64,000 nucleotides of DNA from an uncultured virus (IMG/VR IMGVR_UViG_3300028591_000186) (taxonomy: Duplodnaviria; Heunggongvirae; Uroviricota; Caudoviricetes), in the IMG/VR virus record IMGVR_UViG_3300028591_000186; one strand, given 5' to 3'. The notes under the pieces are model-generated. The model was not told the DNA's origin. It saw only the letters and a program-made list of their open reading frames with translations, and ran no database searches. The translations under genes and the position numbers were made by a program. Below are positions 1 to 35,733 of the stretch, piece by piece. Within the stretch, counting starts at the first letter, position 1; each line of letters starts with the position of its first letter.

Positions 1-137
1 GATAGATATAAAGACTGCACCTAATTATTTTGATCAGTAAACTGCTGTTGATTTATAAATTTGAAGTTTTATTAGGATAGATAACAAATATCAGCACCCA
101 ATACTCAGATAAAGGTAAAGACGAAGGGAGAACCATT

Positions 138-290
138 ATGTTAGTAGTAAGCGTAGCAGAATTAAAATTAAAATTCGAAAAGTATATAAAAGAAGCAACA
201 GAGAATGGTACAAAAATGTTAAACAAAGATTCTATTCTTGAAGAATTTGATGATGCTGTTGAGTCTTTAGATACATGGGAGATTAATTAA
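138..290 (+). CDS. small hypothetical protein (50 aa)
   Basis: ATG after GGAG RBS; open frame MLVVSVAELK...WEIN*. Confidence 0.6.
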   Translation: MLVVSVAELKLKFEKYIKEATENGTKMLNKDSILEEFDDAVESLDTWEIN

Positions 291-366
291 TGGGAAAATT
301 TCTTAACTTAATGACATTGAATAGAAGATAGTTAATAAAAAGATATTTTTATTAGAGGATAACGAT

Positions 367-723
367 ATGATTGATGTTAAAGAATTATATAAAGAAGTTG
401 AACAAGAATCAGAAAAAATGCAAAAAGCTAATCAGCAGCCCTGGCTTGTATATCTTGTATCTTCTTGTGAAATGGGATCTGAGGGATGGTCTGGATGGTG
501 TTACTATTGTGTAGCTTTTGGTGATACAGATGAAGAGATATATAATAACTGGGTTAAAAATGTAAAATTGATATATGGCGTGGATTTATCTAATGATTTA
601 AAAGAACACAATGGATATTGGAGTTGTTATTATCCTATTTATAAGAATCAGTTACCAACAAGTGTTTATGGTGATTCGCAACCATTATTGATTGAGAAAT
701 GTTTTAGGAAACATATTTTATAA
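367..723 (+). CDS. hypothetical phage protein
   Basis: 118-aa ORF with GAGG RBS, bounded by junction sites. Confidence 0.75.
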   Translation: MIDVKELYKEVEQESEKMQKANQQPWLVYLVSSCEMGSEGWSGWCYYCVAFGDTDEEIYNNWVKNVKLIYGVDLSNDLKEHNGYWSCYYPIYKNQLPTSVYGDSQPLLIEKCFRKHIL

Positions 724-753
724 ATTAAAGATAATTTTTATTGGAGAAGAGAC

Positions 754-951
754 ATGGTAACTAAAGAACAAAAAATTGAAGAAATAAATGAAAGCATTTA
801 TAAAGTTCGAGAAATATTTGATATGGCATACGATTATAATCAAAATGATAATTTTCAAACAGAATTATCTCGGAAATGTACCGATTATCTTGTTGGTGTA
901 TGGCAAACGCTCGGTGCTATTAGAGACGAGCTAATTAAAGATGACGAGTGA
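754..951 (+). CDS. hypothetical protein
   Basis: 65-aa ORF, GGAG RBS. Confidence 0.7.
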   Translation: MVTKEQKIEEINESIYKVREIFDMAYDYNQNDNFQTELSRKCTDYLVGVWQTLGAIRDELIKDDE

Positions 952-972
952 AATAAATAATTTTCTTGGGAA

Positions 973-1083
973 GATCACTTATATAGGAGGCTCGATGTGA
1001 AAACATTGTCGCAATAAATACGAGCATGTGGGAAGTGATTGAGTTTAGCTGGTGAAATAGCGACGATTTGGGTTCAGCTAAAC
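973..1083 (+). ncRNA. candidate structured RNA with pseudoknot
   Basis: Stems 973-980/1033-1040, 990-994/1021-1025, 995-998/1003-1006 (GAAA tetraloop), 1043-1052/1074-1083; loop pairing 1005-1012/1060-1067. Confidence 0.6.
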
Positions 1084-1122
1084 ATTAATAAAATAATATG
1101 TTTTTATAGGAGGAGATAAGAA

Positions 1123-1275
1123 ATGAAAAGTGCAGAAGAAATTAAAAGCAAAATAGAAGAGCTTTATGAAGATTATGCTCATGCTGATGAGTATAGTTGT
1201 GATCGTTGAGAAGAATGTCCCAAGATTTCAGCACAGATAGATATCCTTCAGTGGGTATTAAAAGAAGCAGAATAA
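1123..1275 (+). pseudogene. small ORF with one internal in-frame TGA (1207-1209)
   Basis: AGGAGG RBS; MKSAEEIK...CDR*EECPKISAQIDILQWVLKEAE*; final TAA lies in a junction site. Confidence 0.55.
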
Positions 1276-1300
1276 AATAAAACATTTATAGGAGAGTAAT

Positions 1301-1513
1301 ATGGAATATCATCATACAAAACCACAATTATTAGGTCAACTTAATTATGATAGATACATATATGCCATCTGTCAATGTCCAAAAGATCTAAGATATGGAT
1401 TGGTTATTGATCGAAATGAATTAACAGAATATGAAAAAGAAACTGGATATTGTTATATTCATTGTAATATCTGCGGTTCGGATATTGTAGTAGGTATGGG
1501 TAAAAAGTTATAA
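1301..1513 (+). CDS. hypothetical protein, Cys-rich (CxC, CxxC)
   Basis: 70-aa ORF with RBS. Confidence 0.65.
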   Translation: MEYHHTKPQLLGQLNYDRYIYAICQCPKDLRYGLVIDRNELTEYEKETGYCYIHCNICGSDIVVGMGKKL

Positions 1514-1571
1514 CAGAATACAAATATATTATCAATAACATAAAATAAACTTTTTATGGAGGTAGGATAAT

Positions 1572-1748
1572 ATGAAATTACATGTATTGATGCGAACCTT
1601 TGTAAAGGATTATGAAGAATTTACAGTAGTATTAGGTGTATATGACGATGATCATATTAAGAAAGCGACAAATATTGCTAACGAACGTTATGATCCTCGT
1701 GATATTTGGGTTGAAGATTTCGATTTGAACAATATAGATACTATATAA
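1572..1748 (+). CDS. small hypothetical protein (58 aa)
   Basis: GGAGG RBS; stop codon inside junction site 1745-1762. Confidence 0.6.
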   Translation: MKLHVLMRTFVKDYEEFTVVLGVYDDDHIKKATNIANERYDPRDIWVEDFDLNNIDTI

Positions 1749-1776
1749 AAGTACAATTTGATTAGAGGAAAAGAAA

Positions 1777-2022
1777 ATGAATAGACTTAATAATTTAGAA
1801 AATAGATTGGCAGTATCATATTTTCATTCCGTTTTTGGTGAATCATCCACGGAGAATTCTCTTATTAATAAGTACAGTTCTAAGGAAGAGTTAGAGCTAC
1901 TATCTAATTTTGAAAGAGCAGCAATAGAAGCAATAAAAGAATTTGACGGATATAGATCTTATTTATTGGGTAAAGCAGCTCAAATTGATGAGCTATATAA
2001 CCCCTCTAGGTATATTCAATAA
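1777..2022 (+). CDS. hypothetical protein
   Basis: 81-aa ORF, GAGG RBS. Confidence 0.65.
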   Translation: MNRLNNLENRLAVSYFHSVFGESSTENSLINKYSSKEELELLSNFERAAIEAIKEFDGYRSYLLGKAAQIDELYNPSRYIQ

Positions 2023-2078
2023 GAGAATACATGTGGAAAGAACAGCAAATAAATAATTAATTCATGAGGTGGTTAGAG

Positions 2079-2367
2079 ATGAAGACAACTAACTGTCCAA
2101 TTTGCGGATATAAAAATTTTATAGATGATCATTATACAGAAGAGTGCTATGGAATAATAGAGCAACATTGTTATTGTTACAGATGCGGATACACAGTTGA
2201 GCAATATCACTCCGAATCTGTTGAAGGATTTGATCTCCCAGTAAAAAAAAGGATATAAGCTTTGTGATGGTATTTATATTCCTAAGAATTGGAGAAAAAG
2301 AAAACGTGTCAAGAGGAAGTATGGAATCAAGTATGATAATAGGTCTTTGATGCTTAGATACTATTAA
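2079..2367 (+). pseudogene. Zn-ribbon protein frameshifted at an A8 tract (2243-2250)
   Basis: CPIC/CYRC motifs; removing one A extends the frame to TAA at 2365-2367. Confidence 0.5.
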
Positions 2368-2404
2368 TAGCTGTTTCACTGCGTTGGTGAAAGGGGACAT
2401 AAGT

Positions 2405-2683
2405 ATGAAAAAGATGATCGAACCACTTACAATAAAAAATATTAAGGCAGCAATACACAAATGGAATCTGATTAACAAGACGTATAACCTGTATTATCAC
2501 CCGAATGATAAAGAAGTTATTCAAGAAATAATAGCAACTCAAGTTGGTGATAATTTGTTATCAATTGAAACATCTTTAGTAAAACCTGGGCATGTGTTAC
2601 TCATAGATAGAACTAAGTTTGAAGATTATTACGAGGATATAAGAAAGGATGACAAAAATGTCACTATCAGCAGAGAACAATAG
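2405..2683 (+). CDS. hypothetical protein
   Basis: ORF track; ATG after AAAGGGG. Confidence 0.6.
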   Translation: MKKMIEPLTIKNIKAAIHKWNLINKTYNLYYHPNDKEVIQEIIATQVGDNLLSIETSLVKPGHVLLIDRTKFEDYYEDIRKDDKNVTISREQ

Positions 2684-2843
2684 GAAATCATCAGTCACAG
2701 ATGCTGTTAACAAGATTTGGAATTCGTCATCTACGGTATCAATTAAATCCATCAAGTCTTGTCCTTATTTATTGCCTTGTGGTTTCTGTGATAAAACCGG
2801 AATATTGTGCAGCCAGTATGAATCAAATAAGCTAACATTGTAA
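2649..2843 (+). CDS. hypothetical protein, Cys-rich C-terminus
   Basis: CPYLLPCGFCDKTGILC motif. Confidence 0.6.
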   Translation: MTKMSLSAENNRKSSVTDAVNKIWNSSSTVSIKSIKSCPYLLPCGFCDKTGILCSQYESNKLTL

Positions 2844-2888
2844 GATAAAAATGTTAGTGAAATTAACTAAAAATGTTAGCAGGAGAAA

Positions 2889-3458
2889 ATGAGAATGAGT
2901 CTTTCACAAGAAAACATTAATAAGCTTTGTGTGACTGGAATCTATCATTGTGATCCAGTTCTATCATGGATTGAATCTTGGAGAAGAGATAGACCTTATC
3001 ATTGTATTAATTGGAATTTTAAGGTAATAAAGCATGATAACTCGGATAAGTATTATATGAATGATACATATTGGACAGGTATTGATGGATTGAAGATCGA
3101 ACTTACAGATGAGAACTTTGACAAATTTAAACTCTTATTTGATATGAATGATGTGCATAAAGTAAGTCCTCCTGATTTCTATGATTATGATGAAGAAGAT
3201 AGATGGCATATTGCTTTGGATAGCGGCGGTTATCAGTTTAGTAAACATTATTATGTAAGAAACGGGGCTAAGAAAAATAAAGAAGTATTATTAGAAAGAT
3301 TGAATAGAGAGTTAGATACTCTGAGAAATCAAGTGAAGTGGAAAGAAGAAGAAATTCAAAAAGTATTATTACAGAGAGTTAGCAAGGTTTTGCCGCCCGT
3401 CAATCCTACAAAAAACAGGGAAGTGGATATTAATAGAAAAAGAACTATCAAGGTATAA
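2889..3458 (+). CDS. hypothetical phage protein
   Basis: 189-aa ORF, AGGAG RBS. Confidence 0.75.
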   Translation: MRMSLSQENINKLCVTGIYHCDPVLSWIESWRRDRPYHCINWNFKVIKHDNSDKYYMNDTYWTGIDGLKIELTDENFDKFKLLFDMNDVHKVSPPDFYDYDEEDRWHIALDSGGYQFSKHYYVRNGAKKNKEVLLERLNRELDTLRNQVKWKEEEIQKVLLQRVSKVLPPVNPTKNREVDINRKRTIKV

Positions 3459-3599
3459 ATGTTCCGAATGTGGAGAGATAATAAAACTTCACAAGAAAAG
3501 TGAAAATATCAAAACTTGAAAAAGATGAAACATTATCTAATTATCCGTTTAGTCATTGTGGTGCAAGAATGATTGAAGCACAGGAAGGAGTGATAAGGA

Positions 3600-3887
3600 A
3601 TGACAAAAGAACAGAAAGATAAAATCCTCAAAATAATGGCAGAGGAAAGAAATGATTATGCAAGAGAGTGTGGTGAGCGCATAGCAGAAGAACGAGGCAA
3701 GATTATAGGTGCTGATTATATGTTTCAAAGATTTCTTGATGTTCTTAACACTGAGGTTGATCCTGAAAATACTGAGGTTGAGCCACAGGGAAGTGCATAC
3801 GATAAATGTCCGATTTGCGTAAATAGAAATAAAAACTGTCAATTCGGGTCATTAGATTGCCACTTCGAAGAACAAATAAATGAGTAG
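3600..3887 (+). CDS. hypothetical protein
   Basis: 95-aa ORF. Confidence 0.65.
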   Translation: MTKEQKDKILKIMAEERNDYARECGERIAEERGKIIGADYMFQRFLDVLNTEVDPENTEVEPQGSAYDKCPICVNRNKNCQFGSLDCHFEEQINE

Positions 3888-3904
3888 AAAGTGAGGGATA
3901 AAAG

Positions 3905-4210
3905 ATGAGAGTAGTAATTGATATAGACGAAAATGTATTTGCAAGATTATTTGATAATGGTACGGAAGATTATGAGATTACGAAAGATGATTTATCTCAA
4001 ATAGCACAATCAATTCGTAAAAGCACACCTCTTACGGCATCAGTGTTAGCAGATATGTTAATGGAAGAAAGAATTAGAGGAACGCTGGATTATGATACAA
4101 CCTTTGAACAGGATATTATTGATAACGTTAGATGTAGACTAACTGTCGACATTATAGACCACAGACCTTGTTATTGCGGTGCTGGATTAAGGGAAGTGTG
4201 GAGGGAATAA
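3905..4210 (+). CDS. hypothetical protein
   Basis: 101-aa ORF, GAGG RBS. Confidence 0.7.
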   Translation: MRVVIDIDENVFARLFDNGTEDYEITKDDLSQIAQSIRKSTPLTASVLADMLMEERIRGTLDYDTTFEQDIIDNVRCRLTVDIIDHRPCYCGAGLREVWRE

Positions 4211-4212
4211 AT

Positions 4213-4590
4213 ATGTATAAAGATAGTACAACCACAATTCCATATGATGATATTGATGTAGAAATTAGACAATTGATACGAGGAATAAATAGTATAAATG
4301 GCATCGAAACTGTTGAATGTTGTTTTGGTCATTATAAATATCCTTGTTTAATCTGGGCTAAAGCAGAGTCAATAGAAGCTATGACATCTTTTCTTTTTCA
4401 CTACTTTGATTGTGAAAGACAATGGAGAGTATGTTTTGATTTAGGTGATGTTCATAAAGATTGGAAAGATATTCATTTTTATATTGATTCTATAACTGCT
4501 GAACCGAAAATTATAGATGAAATGATAGTGAACTTGACTAGTAGATTTTGTAAAGCAGAAAGCGAGGATAAGGATGACGGACGAATTTGA
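4213..4590 (+). CDS. hypothetical protein
   Basis: ATG after GGAGG; TVECCFGH motif. Confidence 0.7.
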   Translation: MYKDSTTTIPYDDIDVEIRQLIRGINSINGIETVECCFGHYKYPCLIWAKAESIEAMTSFLFHYFDCERQWRVCFDLGDVHKDWKDIHFYIDSITAEPKIIDEMIVNLTSRFCKAESEDKDDGRI

Positions 4591-4843
4591 ATTTACCTTA
4601 CACAGTCCTTTGACCAAAGAGGACTGGAATAAACTATCAGATGCAGAGCATGAAAATACAATGTTTGTTACGTTTCAAACACCACAAGGCAGACAAGTGA
4701 GATATATAAAATGCGAGGTGCTTGACAAGATAAGAGCCGAGATAATAAATCTTACTAATGGAGATATGCCTGAGAGAATTTGGAATGTTGATGTATTGGA
4801 AATCTTGGATAAGTACAAGGCAGATAAGGAGCAGGAAGAATGA
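4574..4843 (+). CDS. hypothetical protein
   Basis: 89-aa ORF overlapping its neighbours. Confidence 0.65.
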   Translation: MTDEFEFTLHSPLTKEDWNKLSDAEHENTMFVTFQTPQGRQVRYIKCEVLDKIRAEIINLTNGDMPERIWNVDVLEILDKYKADKEQEE

Positions 4844-5055
4844 CATATAAACATCCAAAAGCCTACAAAGGCATATCTAATCAGGACAGGGCAAGACAGA
4901 TGGTTGAAGAAAACTGTCTGATGTGTGAAAACTTCATGGGGCAGGAGCATGACTTTACAGAATGTAATCTCAAGAAACTATGCTTTGAAGGATTCAAACA
5001 TCCGTCAATTTTTTATGCAAAAGATTTTGTAAAAATGGAGATAGAGGGAATATAA
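4840..5055 (+). CDS. hypothetical protein
   Basis: 71-aa ORF, ATGA coupling. Confidence 0.6.
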   Translation: MTYKHPKAYKGISNQDRARQMVEENCLMCENFMGQEHDFTECNLKKLCFEGFKHPSIFYAKDFVKMEIEGI

Positions 5056-5600
5056 CAAGAGAAGTTGAAAACTCAAATATAGGAGGCATTAATATGATAA
5101 CAGATGTGTTGAGTATATGCAGGGACTGTCCGTTTCAGAAATATACTCCCCATTATAAGGAGTATGAGATAGACGATATAAGATTTTGTGTACACATCGA
5201 GTCGTGTCGTCGGGCATATCTATTATTGAAAAAGGAGAAAAATGACAATAAGAATACCAGATAATGCAACTAATGGAGATATATTGAAGTTATTATTTCC
5301 AAGTGAAGATTTTGAGAATAAAGAATATATTTGTCAATATCCTCTAGATGGAATGATCCATGATTTTAGTTGTAAATGGTGGAATAGTTCATACAAAGGA
5401 GATCATGAAAATGACTAACCTTGAAGCAAAAGAAAAGCTATATATGGAATGGCAATGCAATAAATCAACTAAAGGTTATTCTTGGGACCTGAAAGACGGT
5501 GGACAGATCCGATTGATTTTAGAAGTTGATAAAACATGATTTTTATTAAGAGGTAAAAGTAGCTTACTGTCAGTTATACAAAGAAAGGAAAACTTACAAA

Positions 5601-6137
5601 ATGGAAAATAATGTAGAGATTTGGAATGCAAAAATTACGAACGTTTCATTGTCAATGGAGGATCATGGTTGTCTAACTTGGGGATTAACTCTCGATGGAG
5701 GTGGAAAAGGTTGTGTATATGGCGGCTGGGTTATTGGAACCGGATACTTAGGTGCTGAAGAATTCAAAGGATCAGCAGAGGGAATGGAAGCCTTAATGCG
5801 GATTATGGACACCGTAGGTGTAGAAAAATGGGAAGATCTAAAAGGTCAGTATGTGCGTGTACGAAGTATAGGATGGGGAAATAGTATTACCTGTATAGGA
5901 AATTTGATAAAAGATAAATGGTTTGATGCAAAAGACTTTTTTGAAACCAAACAAAAAGAACGTCCTGCAAAACATATACCTAAGAACGTTGGTGAATTAA
6001 AACAATTTATACTTAATAAATTACGTGAGGAGTACGACGAAATATACGACAGAAAAACTGATACAGATATCATTGTTCAAGTTGAAGAAGAAAACAATGG
6101 GCGAAATGATGTTTGGATTCAATTATTTTCATTCTAA
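5601..6137 (+). CDS. hypothetical phage protein
   Basis: 178-aa ORF, AAAGGA RBS. Confidence 0.75.
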   Translation: MENNVEIWNAKITNVSLSMEDHGCLTWGLTLDGGGKGCVYGGWVIGTGYLGAEEFKGSAEGMEALMRIMDTVGVEKWEDLKGQYVRVRSIGWGNSITCIGNLIKDKWFDAKDFFETKQKERPAKHIPKNVGELKQFILNKLREEYDEIYDRKTDTDIIVQVEEENNGRNDVWIQLFSF

Positions 6138-6154
6138 ATAAGGAAGTGATAAAA

Positions 6155-6466
6155 ATGATTATAGAAACAGGAAATATCGGAATACCATTACACGAGATTA
6201 TAGCAAAATTTGGTAATAAATCGTATCCATACATTGAATGTCGATGTAAGTGGACGGATCTAGATGGAGAAAAATATGACGATTTTTGGGGCAGTTGTTC
6301 TTATGATAATGAGACTGGAGAGCTTACATCATTAGATCATGACTCATATTCGCTAGACGATTTATATAACGAATGGGAAGAATGGCAAGATCTTGATGAA
6401 AAGTATTCTGATAATGGACAGATATGTTTAACTGTATGGGAATATGGTGAAGTGGTATTTGAATAA
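6155..6466 (+). CDS. hypothetical acidic protein
   Basis: ORF track; ends at junction site 6466-6483. Confidence 0.7.
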   Translation: MIIETGNIGIPLHEIIAKFGNKSYPYIECRCKWTDLDGEKYDDFWGSCSYDNETGELTSLDHDSYSLDDLYNEWEEWQDLDEKYSDNGQICLTVWEYGEVVFE

Positions 6467-6496
6467 TAAAACTTTGATTTCATTGGGAGAGAAAAG

Positions 6497-6790
6497 ATGA
6501 GAATTAAATTTGGAAATAAAATAATAGAATTCGATCATGCGTGTCAACTTGGTGGGACAGATAGATTTGTAGAAGTATGGTCTACGAAACATAAATATAC
6601 AATTGATTGCGAAGAGAATAATTATGCTAGATGGTTAATGTCTACTTTATTGATAGATGGATATTTCGATGCATCTGGTGTAGATTACGACAATAGTAAT
6701 GATCAGACTTGGATTGATTATTGTAATAATAAAACAGATGAACAAAAAGTGTTCGTATCATGGATTAATAAACATATCATGGGTGGTTAA
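6497..6790 (+). CDS. hypothetical protein
   Basis: 97-aa ORF, GGAG RBS. Confidence 0.7.
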   Translation: MRIKFGNKIIEFDHACQLGGTDRFVEVWSTKHKYTIDCEENNYARWLMSTLLIDGYFDASGVDYDNSNDQTWIDYCNNKTDEQKVFVSWINKHIMGG

Positions 6791-6808
6791 TAAAAGCAAA
6801 TAAAAATA

Positions 6809-7114
6809 CAATGCTATTGAGTTAAGGGCAGAGACATATTGTTGTATAGGGCTACGTCAGCATACACCGACAAACGGTAGTTTGTGAACTCAACGCCCGA
6901 ACGAGAGGTAAATATCGGTTATCCACCGAGGCGTACCAATGCAGACAACGAAGATAGGCATAAGGAATGTGTCTGAAAGCTGGAATAGAAAGCCAGAGTC
7001 TTTAATAAGATATGCGCATCCGAAGGTCAGGGAAAGGCAATAAAGCAATCTGAGTACCTTTTAAACGAGTCGAGTGTGAAAATGGCTGATTCTGTCCTTA
7101 ACTTAATAGCATTG
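6809..7114 (+). mobile_element. 306-bp MITE-like element or large structured ncRNA
   Basis: 24-bp terminal inverted repeats (6809-6832/7091-7114); 10-bp direct repeat AATAAAAATA on both flanks (6799-6808, 7115-7124); many internal helices; no ORF. Confidence 0.65.
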
Positions 7115-7144
7115 AATAAAAATAATTTGATTGGAGACTATTAT

Positions 7145-7393
7145 ATGGAAAGACAACTACAAAAAACATTAGATTGTATAAATCGTATAGAAGAAGCTAT
7201 TTCAAGACTATATTCTGATTATGAAGAATATGAAAAGTTCCCTGATGAGGATAAAGCATTAATAGCAAATCCTATGTTACATCTTGCTGAAACAATTTAT
7301 ATGGAGGCTCCTGCATGGGCAGAAGATTTAGCAAAATATCTTTGTGTTCTTTGTGATATAAAGAGACTGGATGTTGAAATAAATGTAAAATAA
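7145..7393 (+). CDS. hypothetical protein
   Basis: ATG after GGAG RBS. Confidence 0.7.
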   Translation: MERQLQKTLDCINRIEEAISRLYSDYEEYEKFPDEDKALIANPMLHLAETIYMEAPAWAEDLAKYLCVLCDIKRLDVEINVK

Positions 7394-7419
7394 AAAAATA
7401 TTTTTTGGAGGAAATAATT

Positions 7420-7608
7420 ATGACAGCTATTTGTGGCCATATAGGTATTCCTGTTGGATCTGAAACATGTAAATTATGTGTATCACATGGTTGTGAAGGA
7501 TATAAACAAGCAACAAAAAAAGATAAACAATGGGAGAATTTGCAGAAAAAAGATTATACAAAAATAATTGAAGCGTTAAAAAATTTTATTGGAGACCGTT
7601 TTAATTAG
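7420..7608 (+). CDS. hypothetical Cys-containing protein
   Basis: GGAGG RBS. Confidence 0.6.
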   Translation: MTAICGHIGIPVGSETCKLCVSHGCEGYKQATKKDKQWENLQKKDYTKIIEALKNFIGDRFN

Positions 7609-7617
7609 GAGTGACAT

Positions 7618-7833
7618 ATGGAATGGAATTATAACCTAGAAAAAGCACCTTTAGACACACCATTAAAATTATTATCTGGTGATAACTGTCTTCTTCTTCT
7701 TCCTCAAAAAGAGTATATAGGAACAATAACAATGTATGGAGATGGAGAATACAGAACCAGAGGAGAATGTATTGATGGTGATCCTGAATACTTTTATCGT
7801 TCAGCAATAGTTGCTTGGAAGACTATAGAATAA
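7618..7833 (+). CDS. hypothetical protein
   Basis: 71 aa; stop codon in junction site 7830-7847. Confidence 0.7.
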   Translation: MEWNYNLEKAPLDTPLKLLSGDNCLLLLPQKEYIGTITMYGDGEYRTRGECIDGDPEYFYRSAIVAWKTIE

Positions 7834-7864
7834 AAGAATAATTTTATTAGAAAGGTGAAAAATC

Positions 7865-8077
7865 ATGGTAGAGAAAAAATTATATACATGTGAAATATGT
7901 AATACGGATTACGCAGATAAAGAAAAGGCAAAAAGATGCGAAGAAAATCATAAGTTACTTAAAGATGCTAAGATAGTTGGTGTATACAAATCATATAATA
8001 GTATCCCTGATGGTATACCTTGTAAAATACATGTTAGATTTCCTGGATTAGATAGGATAATAGAATATAGAGTGTAA
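7865..8077 (+). CDS. C2H2-like Zn-finger small protein
   Basis: YTCEIC...CEENH motif. Confidence 0.7.
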   Translation: MVEKKLYTCEICNTDYADKEKAKRCEENHKLLKDAKIVGVYKSYNSIPDGIPCKIHVRFPGLDRIIEYRV

Positions 8078-8126
8078 TTTCGTATATAATGTGCGTTTCA
8101 CTAATTTGGTGAAACCGAGGTGAACT

Positions 8127-8651
8127 ATGAAAACAAAAAGAATAACCGAAGAGGAACGGCAAATATATTATTTGCTTGCAACTAAAGAAATTCTCGAACT
8201 TTTTGCAGAGCAAGAACTTGGCAGCAGATGTGAGATTAATATTCCGGCAGTACTCGGATATATCAAATCAATAAAGTTTGTAAATGATTGTTGGGGATTA
8301 AATACTAAAGAAGAGATATATCAGCTTGTGACAGACGATATATTGTCTGGATATCCTATATGGCAGCTCCTAGATATGCCTGAATGGACTCGAAATATGG
8401 TTGAGAGAGAATTCACGCTGTCCCAAGAAGAAAAGCGTAAACAGCTTATCAAGAAATATAAATGCTATACATGTAAATATTTTGAGGAGCATGAAACTTC
8501 TTTAGGGATATTTAGAGAATGTAAGAGGCCACGAGACAAACATGATGGTTGGCTGCACAGAAGAGGATATTTTGATCCGGTAAAAAAGTGTAAATATTAT
8601 GTTTCCGACATTTATGACGGGAAGATTGGAGAGAACGATGGGGATAAATGA
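8127..8651 (+). CDS. hypothetical protein
   Basis: 174-aa ORF, GAGGTG RBS. Confidence 0.7.
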   Translation: MKTKRITEEERQIYYLLATKEILELFAEQELGSRCEINIPAVLGYIKSIKFVNDCWGLNTKEEIYQLVTDDILSGYPIWQLLDMPEWTRNMVEREFTLSQEEKRKQLIKKYKCYTCKYFEEHETSLGIFRECKRPRDKHDGWLHRRGYFDPVKKCKYYVSDIYDGKIGENDGDK

Positions 8652-8823
8652 TAATATTCCAGAAGATCCACATGTGGACAAAAGAGTATCTGATATGTTA
8701 CTTCAGATAGCGTTAGATAATACAAAGCCTTTAGAGGAACGAGATAAACTTATTAAAGAGCTGCTGGTTACGGCATTTGGAGAAGATGTGTTTGTTACAA
8801 ATGACATATTAAAAGAGGAATAG
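8638..8823 (+). CDS. hypothetical protein
   Basis: ATG after GGAG. Confidence 0.55.
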   Translation: MGINDNIPEDPHVDKRVSDMLLQIALDNTKPLEERDKLIKELLVTAFGEDVFVTNDILKEE

Positions 8824-8826
8824 ACA

Positions 8827-9579
8827 ATGAGGTATATGGGAAGTAAGTTAAGAATTTCGAAGTATATAGTACCGATTATACAAAAAGAAATAGATAATCA
8901 TGATATACATTATTATATAGAGCCGTTTTGCGGCTCTTGTTCTATCATTGATAAGATAAGATGCGATAGGAAGTTTGCATATGATATAAACAGATATCTG
9001 ATTTATCTCTTTATCCATGTTAAATTAGGTGGCGAATTACCCGAAATGATTACTAAAAGAGAATACACTGCATTAAGACGGGCTTGGTACAATGGGAATC
9101 CAGATAAATATCCTGATTGGCTTATAGGTGCCGCTATGTTTTTAGCTTCTTATAACGGTCGTGGTTTTTCAGGTGGATATGCTAGTCCGGGCTATGAAAA
9201 ATTAAAAAATGGGGGAGTTAAATACAGAAACTATTACAAAGAGGCTAAGAACAATCTCTTGGAGCAAGTTAAGCAGCCTTTGTTTCAAGATATCATGTTT
9301 GGAATATCTGATTATAGAAAATTAGACCATTTGGATAACTACATGATATATGTAGATCCACCATATCAGGGAAAAAAACGATATGAGTATTCTAAACGGT
9401 TTGATTATGAATACTTCTGGAGAAAAATGCGTGAGTGGTCACAGAATAACATTGTCCTCATATCTGAGCTTGAAGCACCGGATGATTTTGAGTGTATTTG
9501 GGAGCAGGAAGTTAGTAGAAGTATAAAAGCTACAGATAAATCTAGGGCAGTTGAGCGACTTTTTCGGCTTAGAGATTGA
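8827..9579 (+). CDS. N6-adenine DNA methyltransferase (D12/Dam-like), orphan
   Basis: YMGSK, EPFCGS (SAM-binding) and DPPY catalytic motifs. Confidence 0.9.
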   Translation: MRYMGSKLRISKYIVPIIQKEIDNHDIHYYIEPFCGSCSIIDKIRCDRKFAYDINRYLIYLFIHVKLGGELPEMITKREYTALRRAWYNGNPDKYPDWLIGAAMFLASYNGRGFSGGYASPGYEKLKNGGVKYRNYYKEAKNNLLEQVKQPLFQDIMFGISDYRKLDHLDNYMIYVDPPYQGKKRYEYSKRFDYEYFWRKMREWSQNNIVLISELEAPDDFECIWEQEVSRSIKATDKSRAVERLFRLRD

Positions 9580-9604
9580 CATATTTAAAGATAAAAGATA
9601 CAAT
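9576..9604 (+). promoter_or_regulatory. sigma-A-type promoter overlapping GACATATTTAAAG motif
   Basis: TTGACA-17bp-TACAAT. Confidence 0.7.
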
Positions 9605-9623
9605 TATCACGGAGGAATAATAT

Positions 9624-9860
9624 ATGTATGAAACAAAATTAAGTCTACCAAATCTCAACATGGTATATGCTTTCCATAAAGAGATCAGTAAGATTCCGTG
9701 CGACGTGGATCTCATGAGTGCCAATTATAATTATGTAGTTGATGCAAAATCAATCATGGGAATCTTAAGCATGGACTTGACAAGCCCAGTTATCCTAAAA
9801 GCACATACAGATGATCCTAAAATTGGCAAACGAATTTTGGAGGTAATTGACAGTCTATGA
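9624..9860 (+). CDS. HPr-family phosphocarrier-like protein
   Basis: VDAKSIMGILSM (Ser46 motif); no His15 motif visible. Confidence 0.8.
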   Translation: MYETKLSLPNLNMVYAFHKEISKIPCDVDLMSANYNYVVDAKSIMGILSMDLTSPVILKAHTDDPKIGKRILEVIDSL

Positions 9861-10426
9861 ATATTTCGCGTCATGCACAAACTAGATATGCCGAAAGAAT
9901 TATGACCAAAGACGATGAAGCAGATGTAAATCTCTTCATCTCTAATCATATTCAAAAAATCACTGAAGATATAACAAAGATGATCAAATATGGTGATTTA
10001 TTATATGAGGGACGGTCAATCAAACAAGAATGGAATAAATCTGTAGTTCAAATATATATGCGTGATAATTGGATTGTTGTAGTAGATAAAGATAAACAAA
10101 ATGTTATTACTTTGTTTACTATTGACCTTGGCGTTGGGGAAGAGATGAACCAGCTTTATTTATCGAAGCTTCGGGAACAACTTGACGCTGCAAAAGTAGT
10201 ATGCAAACAAAAGTGTGATGAAATAGAGCTTCAGAAACAGACATATCAAAGTTTGATTGAAAATAATGAAGATGTAATAGCAGAAAATAATAGGATTAAC
10301 AAATCTTTGGAAGAACAAAACGAAATGTATCGTGGATTAATTAAAGCCGAAGAAACTAATAAGGAACTTGCAGAGAAAGAAATTAGAAGGATTGTTGGAG
10401 TATTGACTTCGAAAAGTATATTTTGA
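9857..10426 (+). CDS. hypothetical protein with C-terminal coiled coil
   Basis: 189-aa ORF; ISRHAQTRYAER N-terminus. Confidence 0.75.
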   Translation: MNISRHAQTRYAERIMTKDDEADVNLFISNHIQKITEDITKMIKYGDLLYEGRSIKQEWNKSVVQIYMRDNWIVVVDKDKQNVITLFTIDLGVGEEMNQLYLSKLREQLDAAKVVCKQKCDEIELQKQTYQSLIENNEDVIAENNRINKSLEEQNEMYRGLIKAEETNKELAEKEIRRIVGVLTSKSIF

Positions 10427-10434
10427 GGTAGAAG

Positions 10435-12204: not shown

Positions 12205-12208
12205 AGTA

Positions 12209-22373: not shown

Positions 22374-22435
22374 TTTGAGGGAATTGAATAAGAGGGTAAG
22401 GGATGAGTAAGTGCAGATATGGCGAGGAGTAAGAA

Positions 22436-23811: not shown

Positions 23812-23875
23812 TAACAATGCCTTGATATGGTAAAGTGAAAATATCAAGGCTCTTTTCTATCGGAAAGGAGTAATA

Positions 23876-25295: not shown

Positions 25296-25853
25296 TTAAT
25301 CTTTAATAGGTAACGCTTCAACTTCCGGAATAATCTTATTCTTAAATACAGAATTTCCGCCACATGCTAGATATTCAGCTGAAACAGCATCAAACATCTG
25401 TCTTTCGGCCAAAGTTATACTTTCTTTCTTCATGAATTCACGATGAAGCTGATATAAAGTAGAACGATTAGCGATCACAGATCTTCTTTTACTATTCTTA
25501 TCAATTTCTTCAAAATGTTTCTTGGTACTCTCTTGTAAATCATCTAAACGTTTTGCTGTTTCATTAGATATAACCTCTAATGTAGCTGTAACGTTTTGCA
25601 ATGTAGCGTCAATACTTTCAAGTTTTTCAAATTGTCTATTATTATCTTCTTCCAGTTTATCTATTCTCTCTTCAAGAGTTTGATCCTTTTCTTCCGCAGT
25701 ATGCTTATTTTGATACCATGTATTTAACTCACCTTTAACCCATTTTATCATTTCATAGATACCCCGTATGGCAGCTATGAATAAAATAATTGTGATAATT
25801 GAATTAAGCGGAGATTCAAATGCGGTTTGTACAAAAGCCATTAAATCGCTCAT
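25296..25853 (-). CDS. holin-like protein (N-terminal TM, coiled coil)
   Basis: single TM segment; YLACGGNS C-terminal motif; last gene of lysis/tail arm. Confidence 0.6.
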   Translation of the reverse strand: MSDLMAFVQTAFESPLNSIITIILFIAAIRGIYEMIKWVKGELNTWYQNKHTAEEKDQTLEERIDKLEEDNNRQFEKLESIDATLQNVTATLEVISNETAKRLDDLQESTKKHFEEIDKNSKRRSVIANRSTLYQLHREFMKKESITLAERQMFDAVSAEYLACGGNSVFKNKIIPEVEALPIKD

Positions 25854-26017
25854 TTTGACCCCTTCGTTTCTATATTTTCTTGTGTATCTTCATTTAATTT
25901 ATATTTATACAAATCGTATAACAAAAGTGAGATTTTATCGTCTCGGAGCTTTAATCTATCCCGAAATTCCTTATAATCGACTATTTGTTCTTCCACGATA
26001 ATCCTCCCTAAAAAATA

Positions 26018-32839: not shown

Positions 32840-33241
32840 TTATTCTGAATAGTTAAAATACCATGTAGTTTCAAGACTATGACCTTGTGGGTCTACAACA
32901 TCTTCTTGAGGCCACCATATATGAACCGGATTTGGAGTATTTTCGTCAAGAATTGTTCCTTGAGGAATACTAAAATCACACTGAGTATAAGGAACAATAT
33001 CACCAATCGTGCCATATGGATTAACATGATCGTATTTCAAGAAAATAGTCATTCCTGTATAATCTATAGGCTCGCCTTTATGGAAGAATTGTTTATCAGG
33101 TGGAGTATTGACTTCTATAGCAACTATAGTATGTTCATCTGGGATATCTCCGTCTATAATTTGATAAAAAGTATACGGATCTTTGATAACAAGATTATCA
33201 TACTGTTCTCGTGTTAATTTAACAAAATCAAAAACTTTCAT
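32840..33241 (-). CDS. bacterial Ig-like domain protein
   Basis: IEVNTPPDK.FF.KGEPIDYTGM motif. Confidence 0.7.
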   Translation of the reverse strand: MKVFDFVKLTREQYDNLVIKDPYTFYQIIDGDIPDEHTIVAIEVNTPPDKQFFHKGEPIDYTGMTIFLKYDHVNPYGTIGDIVPYTQCDFSIPQGTILDENTPNPVHIWWPQEDVVDPQGHSLETTWYFNYSE

Positions 33242-33251
33242 TTTTCTCCTT

Positions 33252-33635
33252 TTAGCCAACAGCTTCATCTTGATTTATTTCCGAAATTTGATGAAACTTA
33301 TTTTTCATTTCTTCCATTGCTGATTCGTATACAATCCCACCCGTTTTGTTTTCAAAAGTTGCTTTAATAAAATATCCAAATAACGCAACACATTCTCCAA
33401 CAATAGCTGTTATCAGAGCAGGAAGAGCAGTTAAGTCTCTTATAAACCACATGACGATCAAACTATATATTTCAACTACGGTGCAATTGATCATAATAAA
33501 AGCCATGACTGTTTTCGTATAAGTCCATGGCTTTTTAGGTTTATCATTTTCATGTTTAATTTCTTGAATTATCTGTTTTTCTTTTACTTTATCAGCATAT
33601 TCTTGTGCCTTTTTCTTTCTTGTCTCAAAATCCAT
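33252..33635 (-). CDS. membrane protein (holin-like, 2 TM)
   Basis: two hydrophobic helices; KATFENKTGGIVYE. Confidence 0.65.
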   Translation of the reverse strand: MDFETRKKKAQEYADKVKEKQIIQEIKHENDKPKKPWTYTKTVMAFIMINCTVVEIYSLIVMWFIRDLTALPALITAIVGECVALFGYFIKATFENKTGGIVYESAMEEMKNKFHQISEINQDEAVG

Positions 33636-33808
33636 GATTAATACCTCCAATAGAAACAAGCGGAACTATCTACGACATACGTATCTAGCTCCGCTTATTA
33701 AGACGAGAATCAACAAGACACTTAATATCTTGTTAAGCATTTAGGATCTTAGTCCTCTCTATCTTTCAAATCTTTACTTGCAAAATCTGTTTTACTCACT
33801 TTTTCACC

Positions 33809-33885
33809 TCTCTATATCTTGTGCTTATTTTTTAGTTTAACCCCAATATGTTGTAGTCAATTTCCTAATAAAATGTTTGTTTTAT
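33809..33885. promoter_or_regulatory. composite site A: two NrdR-box-like motifs plus ATAAAA-N6-TTTTAT core
   Basis: TCTCTATATCTTGTGC (33809-33824), CCCCAATATGTTGTAG (33841-33856), core 33868-33885. Confidence 0.75.
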
Positions 33886-33973
33886 CACCGCCGATATAGC
33901 CACGATACCACCGCAGACCGCCAGAATTATATTCCAGAGGTCGTGCGGGGGTTAGCATTATTGGTGTGTCCAT
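33880..33973 (-). pseudogene. truncated holin-like N-terminal fragment
   Basis: MDTPIMLTP/HDLWNIILAVCGGIVAISAVIK with one frameshift in G5 (33947-33951); ends at the core site; GC-richer than its flank. Confidence 0.55.
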
Positions 33974-34089
33974 GTTTAGTTTCCTTAGTTATTTGTACTT
34001 TTTACTAAAACTTTCACTTTCTTACCATAACAAGCCCTGATGCCGTCCTCAGCGTACCGGATCCGTAAAGGATCCCAACCACGCGAAAC

Positions 34090-35586
34090 TTATGCTAATA
34101 ACAGGGGTATTGACTTATTAAAATATTGGTTGCCCATATAAAATCTTATGATATTATTTTTTGCTACACTCTCCGCTGTTGTTGTATCGATATCCTTAAA
34201 CATGATGTAAAGATCCTGATTATATACGCTGAGCTCGACTACAACTTTAATATAGTTAGGATTATCATACAGCCATCCGGTATATTCACCCAATATCAAA
34301 TAAGATCCTGTCTGTATTGGTCGCACAAATGCTGTAGGCATTTCTCCTAACTTATATCTATGGAATGTTAAGATCTGTACTGCTGCACTAAATATAAATG
34401 TATAGCTGCTTATGAGCGTGATACTGCCAATTGTATTTGCAGTATTTTCCAAAAGATTAATATTACCGCTGGATAATGTAAACTCTCCCTTGCTTAAATC
34501 AACACTTCCGCTATTTATCAAAGAACATTCACTAGCACCATAATTAAGGAAATTAGCTACATTATGTGCAATTCGTCTGGATCCTGCAGGTAGCGGGTGA
34601 TCATCACTCTGGTATTCGTTGTAATTATGATAAAACGTATAGGCATTATCAATATGTCTGTAGTTAGGTGCTGAGTAACTGTTGTAATAGTCAACAATGC
34701 TCATAAGCCTCTGTTTACCTACCCAATTTCTAGTCCCGGATATCATCCCGACTGTGATCATAGCATTAGGATAGTTAGCTGCAGCATAATCTGCAAAACT
34801 GATTATTCCATTAATAATAGCACTATAGCTCTTGTCTCCGTCATTAACACCCCCTAAGACTACAATGTCAGTTATCTTATCTTTATCGCTGATAGTCGCT
34901 GATAGGTCAACTAACTGATCAAGGAATGTTTTGGTTCCGCTTGCAAAGCCTGATCCGCTTACTCCGCTATGATACTTAACACCGCTAAGATAGTTATCAA
35001 GGTAACTGCTCCAAGGTACAATCTGTGTGCCTCCGCTAGGTGTGTCTGTAGTATTGTAGGAATCACCTATAAATATATATCTTTTTTCTGTTAGCAAATC
35101 CGTTTTATCCTGTAGGCCGATTATATCATCCTCTACCGTATCCAACCGTCCATCAAGAGCATTATTTATATTATCTATCTTATTACTACTCCAAGTGGTA
35201 TTTTCACTAACTTGATTATCATTTATTTGGTTATCGTAAAGTGTTTCATACTGAGTACCATTCCAGAAAAACATACGTTCTTTCCCACCTACAAGAACTC
35301 TATAGATATCTTCAGCTTGAGGAGTAAGAACAACTCCGTCCTTCATAAGCCAATTAGCACCGTATTCGGTTCCATTCGGATTTACTACCGCAACATGCAC
35401 TAATCCCTCTATGTCTGTATTCATTGCACAAAACCAATCTGTTGTTACGGTAGGAAGAACACCTGTTGTAGTTTTTCTTGCTATATATGTAGCATTTCGA
35501 TAATAAACTACATCTAAAAATTCATATGTAGTAGAAGAGGAGTAGTCGCCTTTGATGACGAATCCTATTCTTCCTGCATCATTCAT
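34090..35586 (-). CDS. tail fibre/receptor-binding protein with SGNH hydrolase domain
   Basis: FIGDSY, GVSGSG, LGGVND, DDHP motifs; fibre-like N-terminus. Confidence 0.8.
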   Translation of the reverse strand: MNDAGRIGFVIKGDYSSSTTYEFLDVVYYRNATYIARKTTTGVLPTVTTDWFCAMNTDIEGLVHVAVVNPNGTEYGANWLMKDGVVLTPQAEDIYRVLVGGKERMFFWNGTQYETLYDNQINDNQVSENTTWSSNKIDNINNALDGRLDTVEDDIIGLQDKTDLLTEKRYIFIGDSYNTTDTPSGGTQIVPWSSYLDNYLSGVKYHSGVSGSGFASGTKTFLDQLVDLSATISDKDKITDIVVLGGVNDGDKSYSAIINGIISFADYAAANYPNAMITVGMISGTRNWVGKQRLMSIVDYYNSYSAPNYRHIDNAYTFYHNYNEYQSDDHPLPAGSRRIAHNVANFLNYGASECSLINSGSVDLSKGEFTLSSGNINLLENTANTIGSITLISSYTFIFSAAVQILTFHRYKLGEMPTAFVRPIQTGSYLILGEYTGWLYDNPNYIKVVVELSVYNQDLYIMFKDIDTTTAESVAKNNIIRFYMGNQYFNKSIPLLLA

Positions 35587-35656
35587 GATGAAATTCTCCT
35601 TCCTTTAAAATTAAAAAAATATGTCCGATGGACATATTAAAAACGCTTGTTATTTA

Positions 35657-35733
35657 TAACAATATATAGTATTTATGAATTTATAAAACCACTACATATT
35701 GTGGTCAAAACATCAATAAAACTAGAATTTTAT
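35657..35733. promoter_or_regulatory. composite site B: two NrdR-box-like motifs plus ATAAAA-N6-TTTTAT core
   Basis: TAACAATATATAGTAT (35657-35672), CCACTACATATTGTGG (35689-35704), core 35716-35733; same spacing as site A. Confidence 0.75.

Follow-up and report, generated by a model that had tools for sequence, protein, structure and literature searches.

A dispersed palindrome at gene junctions of SPbeta-like phages and an uncultured ruminant-gut phage, a possible docking site for a phage protein

The subject of this report is a short inverted repeat, ATAAAA-N6-TTTTAT, that recurs between genes in a 64,000-nucleotide stretch of DNA, referred to here as the window, from an uncultured virus of the Caudoviricetes (IMG/VR record IMGVR_UViG_3300028591_000186). 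The closest described systems are other dispersed repeats of phages. Cluster O mycobacteriophages carry a dispersed 17-bp repeat, TGTTCGG-N3-CCGAACA, which, like the window motif, has invariant inverted arms around a free center, is present in tens of copies that are mostly intergenic and denser in the non-structural part of the genome, and has no known binder or function (PMC4351075). The stoperators of Cluster A mycobacteriophages are likewise found in many copies at short intergenic gaps in the early regions of temperate phages, and work through a bound repressor that halts elongating RNA polymerase, a mode of action that is also proposed below for the motif (PMC9283540; PMC4351075; PMC3203893). 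The SAS and ESAS elements of Cluster K phages are associated with non-structural genes only, lie just upstream of the ribosome-binding site (RBS), sometimes together with the upstream stop codon, and include inverted repeats with a variable spacer; their authors also favored DNA-binding proteins, since mismatches fail to preserve pairing (PMC3203893). In T4-type phages, promoter-early stem-loops (PeSLs) are repeated junction elements located by small ORFans in hyperplastic regions and associated with the breakpoints of insertions, deletions, and replacements (PMC2839356). Finally, SPBRE is a dispersed palindrome of the phage family in which the motif also occurs and is bound by MrpR (YopR), the SPbeta repressor, which has the tyrosine-recombinase fold (PMC10516654).

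An annotation made from the sequence alone (the original prediction) had interpreted the window repeat as an integron-like array, in which small genes are inserted and excised at tyrosine-recombinase core sites. The present analysis confirms the palindrome at the junctions of small early genes in this ruminant-gut phage as a true feature of the sequence, and shows that its core is a family-wide hallmark of SPbeta-like large temperate siphoviruses of Firmicutes, confined to phage DNA; the hosts of the phages that carry it are Bacilli and, probably, Clostridia. A protein docking site is a more likely function for it than an integron-like recombination site.

The motif in the window and across a phage family

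In what follows, the motif is the 18-mer ATAAAA-N6-TTTTAT and the core is the 16-bp TAAAA-N6-TTTTA. The seven perfect and seven one-mismatch copies of the original prediction are all present at the coordinates it gave, but its list was incomplete, one perfect copy (11004–11021) and four one-mismatch copies (10893, 15225, 49843, and 56579) having been missed. The enrichment is strong when measured against 100 dinucleotide-preserving shuffles: the window contains 8 perfect copies versus a shuffle mean of 0.10 (maximum 1), in agreement with the earlier estimate of well under one perfect chance copy per 64 kb, and 19 copies with at most one mismatch versus a mean of 2.45 (maximum 6). The half-sites alone are frequent (ATAAAA, n = 104; TTTTAT, n = 63); they form 8 pairs at a spacing of 6 and 0–1 at each other spacing tested (0–30), and the reverse order, TTTTAT...ATAAAA, never gives more than one pair at any spacing. 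The 6-bp spacer varies freely, as had been claimed, and is different in all 8 perfect copies. A de novo scan of all 5-mer dyads ranked the motif first in the window, as ATAAA-N8 (13 versus 1.0 expected).

On our own map of open reading frames (ORFs), 14 of the 19 copies include at least 7 non-coding bases, the non-coding share of the window being 5462 of 64,000 bases (8.5%). Within the junction sequence only (6249 nt, 500 shuffles), there are 7 perfect copies versus 0.01 expected and 13 with at most one mismatch versus 0.36. Among the small ORFs at 290–8127, 8 of the 25 junctions carry the motif, compared with 2 of 24 in the region 8651–23876. The 5 copies that had been missed are all inside ORFs, and the claim that every copy lies at a gene junction is therefore valid only for the 14 that were listed. 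The individual copies are as follows.

55–72, plus strand: one-mismatch copy with the arms ATAAAT..TTTTAT, in non-coding DNA ahead of the first small ORFs
335–352, plus strand: perfect copy; TAGAGGA directly after it, ATG of ORF 367–723 14 nt on
724–741, plus strand: one-mismatch copy adjoining the stop of ORF 367–723, 12 nt before the ATG of ORF 754–951
1272–1289, plus strand: one-mismatch copy, 11 nt before the ATG of ORF 1301–1513
1540–1557, plus strand: perfect copy, 14 nt before the ATG of ORF 1572–1748
1745–1762, plus strand: one-mismatch copy; left arm holds the TAA of ORF 1572–1748, 14 nt before the ATG of ORF 1777–2022
5529–5546, plus strand: perfect copy; spacer holds the TGA of ORF 5360–5539, followed by TAAGAGG
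6466–6483, plus strand: one-mismatch copy adjoining the stop of ORF 6113–6466, 13 nt before the ATG of ORF 6497–6790
7830–7847, plus strand: perfect copy; left arm holds the TAA of ORF 7618–7833, 17 nt before the ATG of ORF 7865–8077
16623–16640, plus strand: one-mismatch copy; left arm holds the TAA of ORF 16201–16626, right arm overlapped by the ATG of ORF 16639–16887
22356–22373, plus strand: perfect copy; left arm holds the TAA of ORF 22144–22359, 62 nt before ORF 22436–22867
25921–25938, no strand assigned: one-mismatch copy in a 210-nt gap by the strand-switch region, about 68 nt upstream of minus strand ORF 25296–25853
33868–33885, minus strand: perfect copy, 7 nt upstream of a −35-like TTGACT in a promoter-like element with a palindrome
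35716–35733, minus strand: perfect copy; arm holds the TAA of minus strand ORF 35730–36245; 7 nt upstream of TTGACC-N17-TATAAA, ahead of ORF 34090–35586
11004–11021, no strand assigned: perfect copy inside the nucleotidyltransferase gene 10643–11665 (supported by PHROGs and Pfam), a counter-example to location at junctions
10893–10910, no strand assigned: one-mismatch copy inside ORF 10643–11665, possibly chance
15225–15242, no strand assigned: one-mismatch copy inside the DNA polymerase gene 12185–15454, possibly chance
49843–49860, no strand assigned: one-mismatch copy inside the tape-measure gene 42593–51970, possibly chance
56579–56596, no strand assigned: one-mismatch copy inside ORF 56330–56701, possibly chance

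A GGAG-type RBS begins 0–2 nt after the plus strand copies at 335, 724, 1272, 1540, 1745, 6466, and 7830, and an ATG follows 11–17 nt after them, which bears out the predicted RBS behind the right arm for the genes starting at 367, 754, 1301, 1572, 1777, 6497, and 7865. The stop codon TAA said to lie in the left arm was found at 1746, 7831, 16624, 22357, and 35730 but not at 1273, where no plus strand ORF of at least 20 residues terminates in the arm.

The promoter-like element next to the minus strand copies at 33868 and 35716, TTGACC-N17-TATAAA, holds in its spacer the palindrome ACCACAATATGTWGTGGT. This element is present twice in the window (35689–35708, minus strand, and 33837–33856) versus 0.02 expected, is kept in distant relatives (locus L040, about 2680–2700, and locus L018, about 20790–20810), where each adjoins a motif copy, and presumably resembles an NrdR box. 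In window positions 1–20000, a scan found 107 promoter-like sites versus 106 in shuffles, that is, no excess. The consensus plus strand promoters at 9576 and 15451 are away from the motif copies; they are near-identical sigma-A-type sequences, TTGACAtatttaaag...TA(C/T)AAT (9576–9604 and 15451–15479), located before ORF 9624 and the dUTPase gene, and might represent a single early or middle promoter in two copies.

For the relatives, gene maps are our own longest-ORF calls and the control is the reversed core pattern. The counts in isolated phages are as follows.

SPbeta (Bacillus phage): core 34, control 2
phi3T: core 30, control 2
Goe11: core 34, control 1
SPR: core 35, control 0
Geobacillus E3: core 30, control 7
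Psychrobacillus Perkons: core 17, control 2
Mammaliicoccus phi6255: core 36, control 3

The yop-yot cluster of SPbeta, from 69 kb onward, contains 27 of the 34 core copies. A 160-kb stretch of an Oceanobacillus genome (G006:C1:755001-915000) includes a prophage of about 130 kb that encodes AimR, an MrpR-type protein, a YopP homologue, a large serine recombinase, a ribonucleotide reductase large subunit with an intein, and ThyA, and is therefore SPbeta-like; the stretch has 37 cores at N6 and 0–3 at other spacings, and 35 18-mers with at most one mismatch, 31 of which have at least 7 non-coding bases. In the entire Oceanobacillus genome (3.9 Mb), 11 of the 13 perfect 18-mers are within the prophage, and 6 of 11 18-mers in Virgibacillus fall in one 120-kb stretch. 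Whole host genomes have the 18-mer at background (7–15 copies versus 7–22 of the reversed control), and a host regulon was rejected because the host chromosomes are not enriched and the copies are concentrated in prophages. The de novo dyad scan also placed the motif first in SPbeta, the Oceanobacillus prophage, E3, phi6255, and Perkons. Some of the 46 loci around polymerase relatives (several of them duplicates) are enriched, in a context like that of the window, including L040 with 5 perfect copies in 23 kb and the Oceanobacillus prophage locus with 2 perfect and 3 one-mismatch copies. The distribution is patchy, Moorella MTATph1 having 2 cores versus 1 control. In Perkons a variant, TGAAA-N6-TTTCA, is also enriched (10 versus 1.6 expected), which fits a mirror-symmetric tolerance at core positions 2 and 15. 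The top dyad of Brevibacillus phage Sundance is AATAC-N2-GTATT (8 versus 0.34 expected), which may be an operator of its own, dispersed in that phage.

Placement and symmetry of the copies

Among six phages, 133 of the 162 core copies have at least 6 non-coding bases, in genomes of which 7–11% is non-coding; SPbeta has 24 of its 34 cores, and the Oceanobacillus prophage 32 of 37, at junctions. Where the flanking genes are co-directional (n = 107 copies), the 18-mer begins a median of 0 nt after the stop codon and ends a median of 24 nt before the next start codon, and these junction copies show a stop signature, T-purine-purine, at −3 to −1 and purine-rich positions from 3–5 nt after the motif. 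In gaps of at least 70 nt (n = 41), the motif is within 8 nt of the stop in 17 cases and within 28 nt of the start in 14, figures that unannotated small ORFs may blur. The TAA of the arm is the real stop in 13 of the 34 SPbeta copies and 13 of the 37 Oceanobacillus copies, which is close to the one-third expected if genes simply run into the motif. It should be noted that a compact genome pushes any non-coding element into the spacer between stop codon and RBS, and the repeating unit of site, RBS, ORF, and site is therefore no proof of cassettes. Two SPbeta copies are off the usual place, one (73669) just before a terminator and one (76171) between a terminator and the aimR promoter.

The family consensus is T(A/G)AAA-N6-TTT(T/C)A, with arm centers 11 bp apart and with the T and A that flank each arm invariant. 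In 101 one-mismatch junction copies, 22 changes are of the kind that keeps a wobble pair versus 17 that are their DNA mirror images (p = 0.52), and the commonest mismatch, A to G at core position 2 (n = 13), is matched by its mirror, T to C at position 15 (n = 12). When folded as RNA, the perfect window copies give −2.3 to −4.7 kcal/mol, with the arm hairpin predicted in 6 of 8, and the arm hairpin is predicted in none of four one-mismatch copies (0 to −1.5 kcal/mol). The features of an intrinsic terminator are absent, since the stems are of A and U only and none of the 5 terminator-like sites found in window positions 1–20000 overlaps a copy. At the outer positions of the 18-mer, the non-complementary form A..A is common in SPbeta, unlike what base pairing would lead one to expect. 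The mirror symmetry of the mismatches, together with the weak or absent hairpins, favors two equivalent half-sites on duplex DNA, and as judged from sequence comparison the motif would thus be a double-stranded DNA site rather than an RNA element.

The reading tentatively preferred here, as possible rather than probable, is that copies of the motif, spread over the early cluster, are bound as double-stranded DNA by a dimer of a phage-encoded protein, which controls transcription there. A dimeric phage protein, other than MrpR, would occupy dyad sites whose halves are about one helical turn apart; these would be lodged in the minimal spacer between stop codon and Shine-Dalgarno sequence throughout the co-directional early and accessory cluster, and occasionally just upstream of a promoter. 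The bound sites would act as a distributed operator or roadblock for early-cluster transcription, in the way that stoperators do in Cluster A mycobacteriophages. In addition, the same 16–20 bp at many junctions would offer short stretches of identity for the exchange of modules, as with PeSLs, and this recurrence is proposed as the cause of the modest excess of breakpoints that is described below.

Several observations weigh against this reading. No candidate for the binder was found: by tblastn, SPbeta shares 7 of the 82 window proteins and the Oceanobacillus prophage 4, among them the polymerase, the HNH endonuclease, and the tape measure, and these shared proteins include no evident regulator, although it should be recognized that the window is part of a phage; Pfam searches of the window gave no helix-turn-helix regulator besides the excisionase. 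When the gene contents of motif-rich and motif-poor phages were compared, only a SprA-like protein, a YopQ-like protein, and three late-cluster proteins had the right distribution, and none of these is in the window. Chromatin affinity purification sequencing (ChAP-seq) of MrpR gave ten peaks, all at SPBRE promoters (PMC10516654). The four IMG/VR relatives that are closest by polymerase (G001–G004, 54–63% identity) are not enriched (core/control 7/4, 5/4, 1/3, and 0/0), and neither is Sundance (0 versus 4); the element is therefore patchy, and its presence in the window could be the result of transfer rather than descent. In the Oceanobacillus prophage the outer positions covary (A..T 11, T..A 13, A..A 5, T..T 4; Fisher p = 0.015), which could be a sign of base pairing, and the tight association with stop codons and RBSs fits an RNA-level role as well.

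Known DNA-binding systems of SPbeta were also considered. An SPBRE-like 18-mer derived from the upstream regions of aimR and yopV has 11 copies in SPbeta at expected places, including aimR, yopM, and yopV; MrpR and SPBRE were rejected as binder and site, the sequence being different and the copies distinct from the 34 core copies. A YonO promoter was rejected, since transcription of the late operon by YonO begins from a single site (PMC5467207), as was the MarR regulator PamR, which affects SPbeta expression and has an unrelated site, TAATAAG-N4-CTTATTA (PMC5730154).

The main rival to the preferred reading, although considered unlikely, is that AUAAAA-N6-UUUUAU acts in RNA as an intercistronic element, in translational coupling, in RBS accessibility, or through an RNA-binding protein or nuclease in the processing of polycistronic early transcripts. 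The contact with the stop codon and the Shine-Dalgarno-like purines that begin 3–5 nt after the motif would suit such a role, and the RBS is actually inside the spacer in two copies, at window 16623 (where the spacer, aggtaa, itself resembles an RBS) and at L040 7652. In loci L015 and L042 the motif is in a 5′-untranslated region, 16 nt after TATAAT. The outer positions are asymmetric in the orientation of transcription (left A in 85 of 107, right T in 62 of 107) and, as noted, covary in one prophage. However, the hairpins are marginal or, in the one-mismatch copies that were folded, not predicted, and the tolerance of mismatches is mirror-symmetric with no bias toward wobble pairs; some copies have no RBS downstream (window 33868 and 35716; SPbeta 73669 and 76171), the motif is not used by host genes, and Rfam and tRNA scans gave no matches.

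Breakpoints, recombinase genes, and gene content

Breakpoints in relatives were taken as the ends of megablast blocks, with a few nucleotides of slack, and it should be noted that the three Spbetavirus comparisons are not independent. Block ends within 25 nt of a core copy number 8 of 52 for SPbeta-phi3T, 9 of 68 for SPbeta-Goe11, and 8 of 65 for phi3T-Goe11, compared with about 1 for random positions and 2.9–3.9 for junction positions (p = 0.005, 0.024, and 0.016, respectively). In SPbeta, 14 of 27 motif junctions have a breakpoint versus 44 of 172 others (odds ratio 3.1, p = 0.0066), and in phi3T 9 of 25 versus 31 of 172 (odds ratio 2.6, p = 0.039); within the early cluster only, the odds ratios are 1.4–3.7 with p values of 0.018–0.32. 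The excess at motif junctions is modest, about 2–3-fold, and most breakpoints are elsewhere, 44 of the 58 breakpoint-bearing junctions of SPbeta having no motif. The expectation of the original prediction that breakpoints in relatives would fall within the 6-bp spacer is thus borne out as to enrichment at motif junctions and not as to confinement, since they are not limited to the spacer and most are at motif-less junctions.

Homology blocks frequently span the entire motif and end 0–7 nt outside it, one block ends at the boundary of left arm and spacer, and one phi3T site is cut off inside the right arm. The copy with the spacer AGACTG is present in SPbeta between one pair of neighbors, in Goe11 with another right neighbor, and in phi3T with that right neighbor and a different left one. 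These patterns fit exchange within or beside the arms and would suit a recombinase, or short-homology exchange followed by selection, equally well.

The second of these is the basis of a quite unlikely alternative to the preferred reading, that the motif is a module boundary like the PeSL, with no dedicated binder, whose short shared sequence lets general or short-homology recombination shuffle accessory genes while leaving them intact. The breakpoint excess supports this as much as it does a recombinase, and the location of crossovers in either arm or just outside, at no single fixed bond, is in its favor, as is the finding that recombination at T4-type PeSLs yields insertions, deletions, and mini-circles (PMC2839356). 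Identical arms of 5–7 bp are, however, very short for homologous exchange, which in any case needs neither a strict N6 nor dyad symmetry; the conservation of the arms between phages whose polymerases are 25–43% identical points to direct selection on the sequence, and the excess is only about 2–3-fold.

Contigs from four public metagenome runs were compared with the window (positions 1–12000, 85% likeness), the counts being those among the joints and ends listed. The accessory region proved highly mosaic. Among the 15 joints listed, 6 have an end within 10 nt of a copy and 9 touch none, and 5 of the 6 have sides of only 20–26 letters, a class that calls for caution. Among the 24 loose ends listed, 2 are at a motif copy, and many are at motif-less gene boundaries (3605–3619, 3905, 4207, 4829, and 7406). 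One contig, 99% identical, follows the window to 1759, where copy 1745 has its right arm; after an insert of 18 different letters the match continues from 2079, a point 15 nt into ORF 2064. ORF 1777–2022 is therefore absent from that relative, and the right end is motif-less. In another, 6458–7617 is replaced; the left end of this segment is 9 nt short of copy 6466, and the right end is at the ATG at 7618, which has no motif. Similarly, loci L015 and L042 are 89% identical until 9 nt past the motif and RBS, continue with about 750 and 617 bp, respectively, of unrelated sequence, and regain homology at a motif-less ATG.

The movement of cassettes would be expected to bring together, in another genome and across 12–20 nt, the sequence to the left of one copy and that to the right of a copy further along. 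Among SPbeta, phi3T, and Goe11 this was found for 0 of 276 pairs of copies (motif-less control, 0 of 590). The cassette-array interpretation is supported in that the motif marks junctions and is associated with module boundaries, and is not supported as to recombinase-driven movement of cassettes. Its likeness to integrons also fails, in that the copies are simple 18-bp dyads unlike attC, their spacers all differ, and the replacement between L015 and L042 has a motif-less right end.

The recombinase to which the original prediction had assigned the cassettes is as follows.

57480–58478, minus strand: gene of the tyrosine-recombinase family that lacks an arm-binding domain, homologous to 40301–41335 in the late cluster of SPbeta (E about 1e-13)

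No link between this gene and the motif was found. Homologues are present in motif-rich SPbeta but also in G001–G003 (27–31% identity) and Sundance, none of which is motif-enriched, and this distribution counts somewhat against the assignment; Sundance has YopP-like and MrpR-like genes as well, yet 0 copies of the motif. Both window tyrosine recombinases have ordinary Phage_integrase and SAM-like domain matches in Pfam, and PHROGs places the window 57480–58478 protein and the MrpR-like and YopP-like proteins all in one generic integrase family. The protein has only weak similarity to YopP-like proteins (E = 4e-4 and 0.024) and none to the Oceanobacillus MrpR-like protein (E = 0.45), and a sequence search against solved structures gave no match; in our reading of alignments judged by eye, the catalytic residues appear intact. 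As an observation in its own right, a tyrosine-recombinase gene of this type is conserved inside the late structural cluster of the window, SPbeta, G001–G003, and Sundance, which are otherwise distant large siphoviruses.

The integron-style model itself, in which the copies are tyrosine-recombinase core sites between which small genes are inserted and excised, is regarded as very unlikely. The geometry is that of such a core, with 5–7-bp arms around exactly 6 bp, and Tn916-type enzymes tolerate unlike spacers. The phages do have extra tyrosine-recombinase genes (window 57480–58478 and its SPbeta counterpart 40301–41335, and yopP), breakpoints are enriched at motif junctions, with blocks ending just outside the motif and one site with both neighbors swapped, and 6 of the 15 window-contig joints listed touch a copy. 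The binding of another dispersed SPbeta palindrome by MrpR, with its tyrosine-recombinase fold, is also suggestive (PMC10516654). A system of this type in SPbeta-like phages would have the motif as the core site of an orphan tyrosine recombinase (the yomM-like 57480–58478 or YopP) that tolerates unlike spacers and swaps flanking genes, and it is accorded a similarly small probability; if real, it would be a phage counterpart of the integron that works on 18-bp double-stranded sites. Against it stand the lack of a clean single-site joint in any of the 276 pairs, the weaker association with breakpoints within the early cluster, the truncated phi3T site, the right ends of the contig and locus replacements, which fall within an ORF (2079) or at an ATG that has no motif (7618; L015/L042), the short sides of most motif-touching joints, and the lack of a common spacer among partner sites. 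The conserved arms, at 5–7 bp, are also shorter than those of Cre- or Xer-type sites, which are typically 9–13 bp. Since most breakpoints are motif-less, none of the 276 pairs is joined, and the recombinase is present in motif-poor relatives, the integron-like reading is weak.

The least likely alternative to the preferred docking site is a DNA-shape element with no specific protein, in which A- and T-tracts with centers one turn apart produce a bend that acts as an UP element or attracts an HU-like protein, as might suit the three copies (window 33868 and 35716, and L040 2656) that precede a −35 hexamer by exactly 7 nt, but most copies have no promoter downstream (the scan of 1–20000 giving no excess and the strong promoters being elsewhere), the invariant flanking T and A go beyond the needs of curvature, and host genomes are not enriched.

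The window is a portion of a large temperate siphovirus. The plus strand of the first 25 kb encodes small ORFs of unknown function followed by a Dam-type methylase, a DnaE-like polymerase (12185–15454), a dUTPase, NrdD, and an HNH endonuclease, with a lysogeny module at 23593–24949 (plus strand; Tn916-type excisionase, 23593–23811; phage integrase, 23876–24949). From 25 to 64 kb the minus strand encodes lysis, tail, and head genes, together with the second tyrosine-recombinase gene, a RuvC-like resolvase, and a TnpB-like gene. The public runs that contain window 31-mers are ruminant-gut metagenomes. The closest genome match is a prophage in a Lachnospiraceae metagenome-assembled genome (polymerase identity 62%), and the best polymerase identities are 46.6% among isolates, 63% in IMG/VR, 62% among genomes, and 69% among metagenomes; a megablast search of window 1–12000 against the phage collection gave no match.

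Three side observations concern individual genes of the window. The tape-measure gene (42593–51970, minus strand) encodes 3125 residues, of which the Pfam tail-domain match is limited to residues 1211–1427. A TnpB/IS605 OrfB-like gene (59629–60780, plus strand; Cas12f1-like TNB and OrfB_IS605 domains) is on the opposite strand within the minus strand head-tail cluster, and no TnpA was seen with it. In the region 17705–21129 (plus strand), NrdD (1015 residues) matches its PHROG family in two stretches, from residue 450 only, and the HNH endonuclease gene comes directly after it, an arrangement that may reflect an insertion or a homing element.

Comparison with known systems

A description of the motif was not found in the searchable literature, the reach of which does not extend to the original 1999 SPbeta genome paper. 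Text look-ups in an SPbeta review (PMC8270828) and a comparative preprint (10.1101/2021.11.22.469490) gave no mention of it, and its literal strings were found in two unrelated papers only. As a hallmark of the SPbeta group, the motif is apparently undescribed. Its reach matters, in that one 16-bp dyad is the palindrome with the strongest over-representation in the window, SPbeta, phi3T, Goe11, SPR, E3, phi6255, Perkons, and the Oceanobacillus prophage. SPbeta is a genetic model for which ChAP-seq, reporters, and deletions are available, and the binder and function should therefore be quickly findable there, with results that are transferable to uncultured gut phages like that of the window. 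The motif is also a measurable handle on the question of whether short conserved junction sequences steer the mosaic exchange of temperate phages or sit where exchange is tolerated.

The likeness to integrons is that of an array in one orientation, in which small ORFs without promoters each have a site at their 3′ end. The attC sites of integrons are imperfect palindromes of 57–141 bp, with paired core sites and extrahelical bases; folded as single strands, they are recombined at attI by an IntI encoded next to them. The window copies are instead 18-bp simple dyads with 6-bp arms and a free spacer of 6 nt, and the window tyrosine recombinases, at 23876–24949 and 57480–58478, are not at the head of the array at 1–8 kb. 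Nor does the gain and loss of genes follow the cassette pattern, to judge from the 276 motif pairs and from the motif-less right ends of the L015/L042 and window-contig indels.

The dispersed repeats of phages are closer, each with its own differences. The Cluster O palindromes have 7-bp arms, a 3-bp spacer, and another sequence, about one-third of their copies are coding, and their placement shows no link to stop or start codons; their phages are actinobacteriophages without detected lysogeny, unlike the SPbeta group (PMC4351075). Stoperators are 13 bp long, asymmetric, and aligned with the direction of transcription, and the immunity repressor binds them as a monomer, whereas the motif is dyad-symmetric with a putative binder (PMC9283540; PMC4351075; PMC3203893); the bias of the motif is at its outermost position only. 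SAS is asymmetric and includes the Shine-Dalgarno sequence, and ESAS has 17-bp arms with spacers of 4–13 bp (PMC3203893), in contrast to the arms of 5–7 bp, the fixed 6-bp spacer, and the RBS distance of 0–20 nt in the motif. PeSLs combine, in about 100 bp, a sigma-70 promoter and a terminator made of a stable G/C stem-loop, neither of which the motif has (PMC2839356). SPBRE has a 15-bp, AATACAAANAATATGTAT-like sequence and about 11 copies at promoters, whereas the motif has 34 copies in SPbeta that are mostly intercistronic and outside the ChAP-seq peaks (PMC10516654). The motif thus lacks defining features of the integron attC site, the PeSL, the stoperator, SPBRE, and the intrinsic terminator, and its place is among the dispersed junction repeats of phages, together with the Cluster O palindromes, stoperators, SAS and ESAS, PeSLs, and SPBRE.

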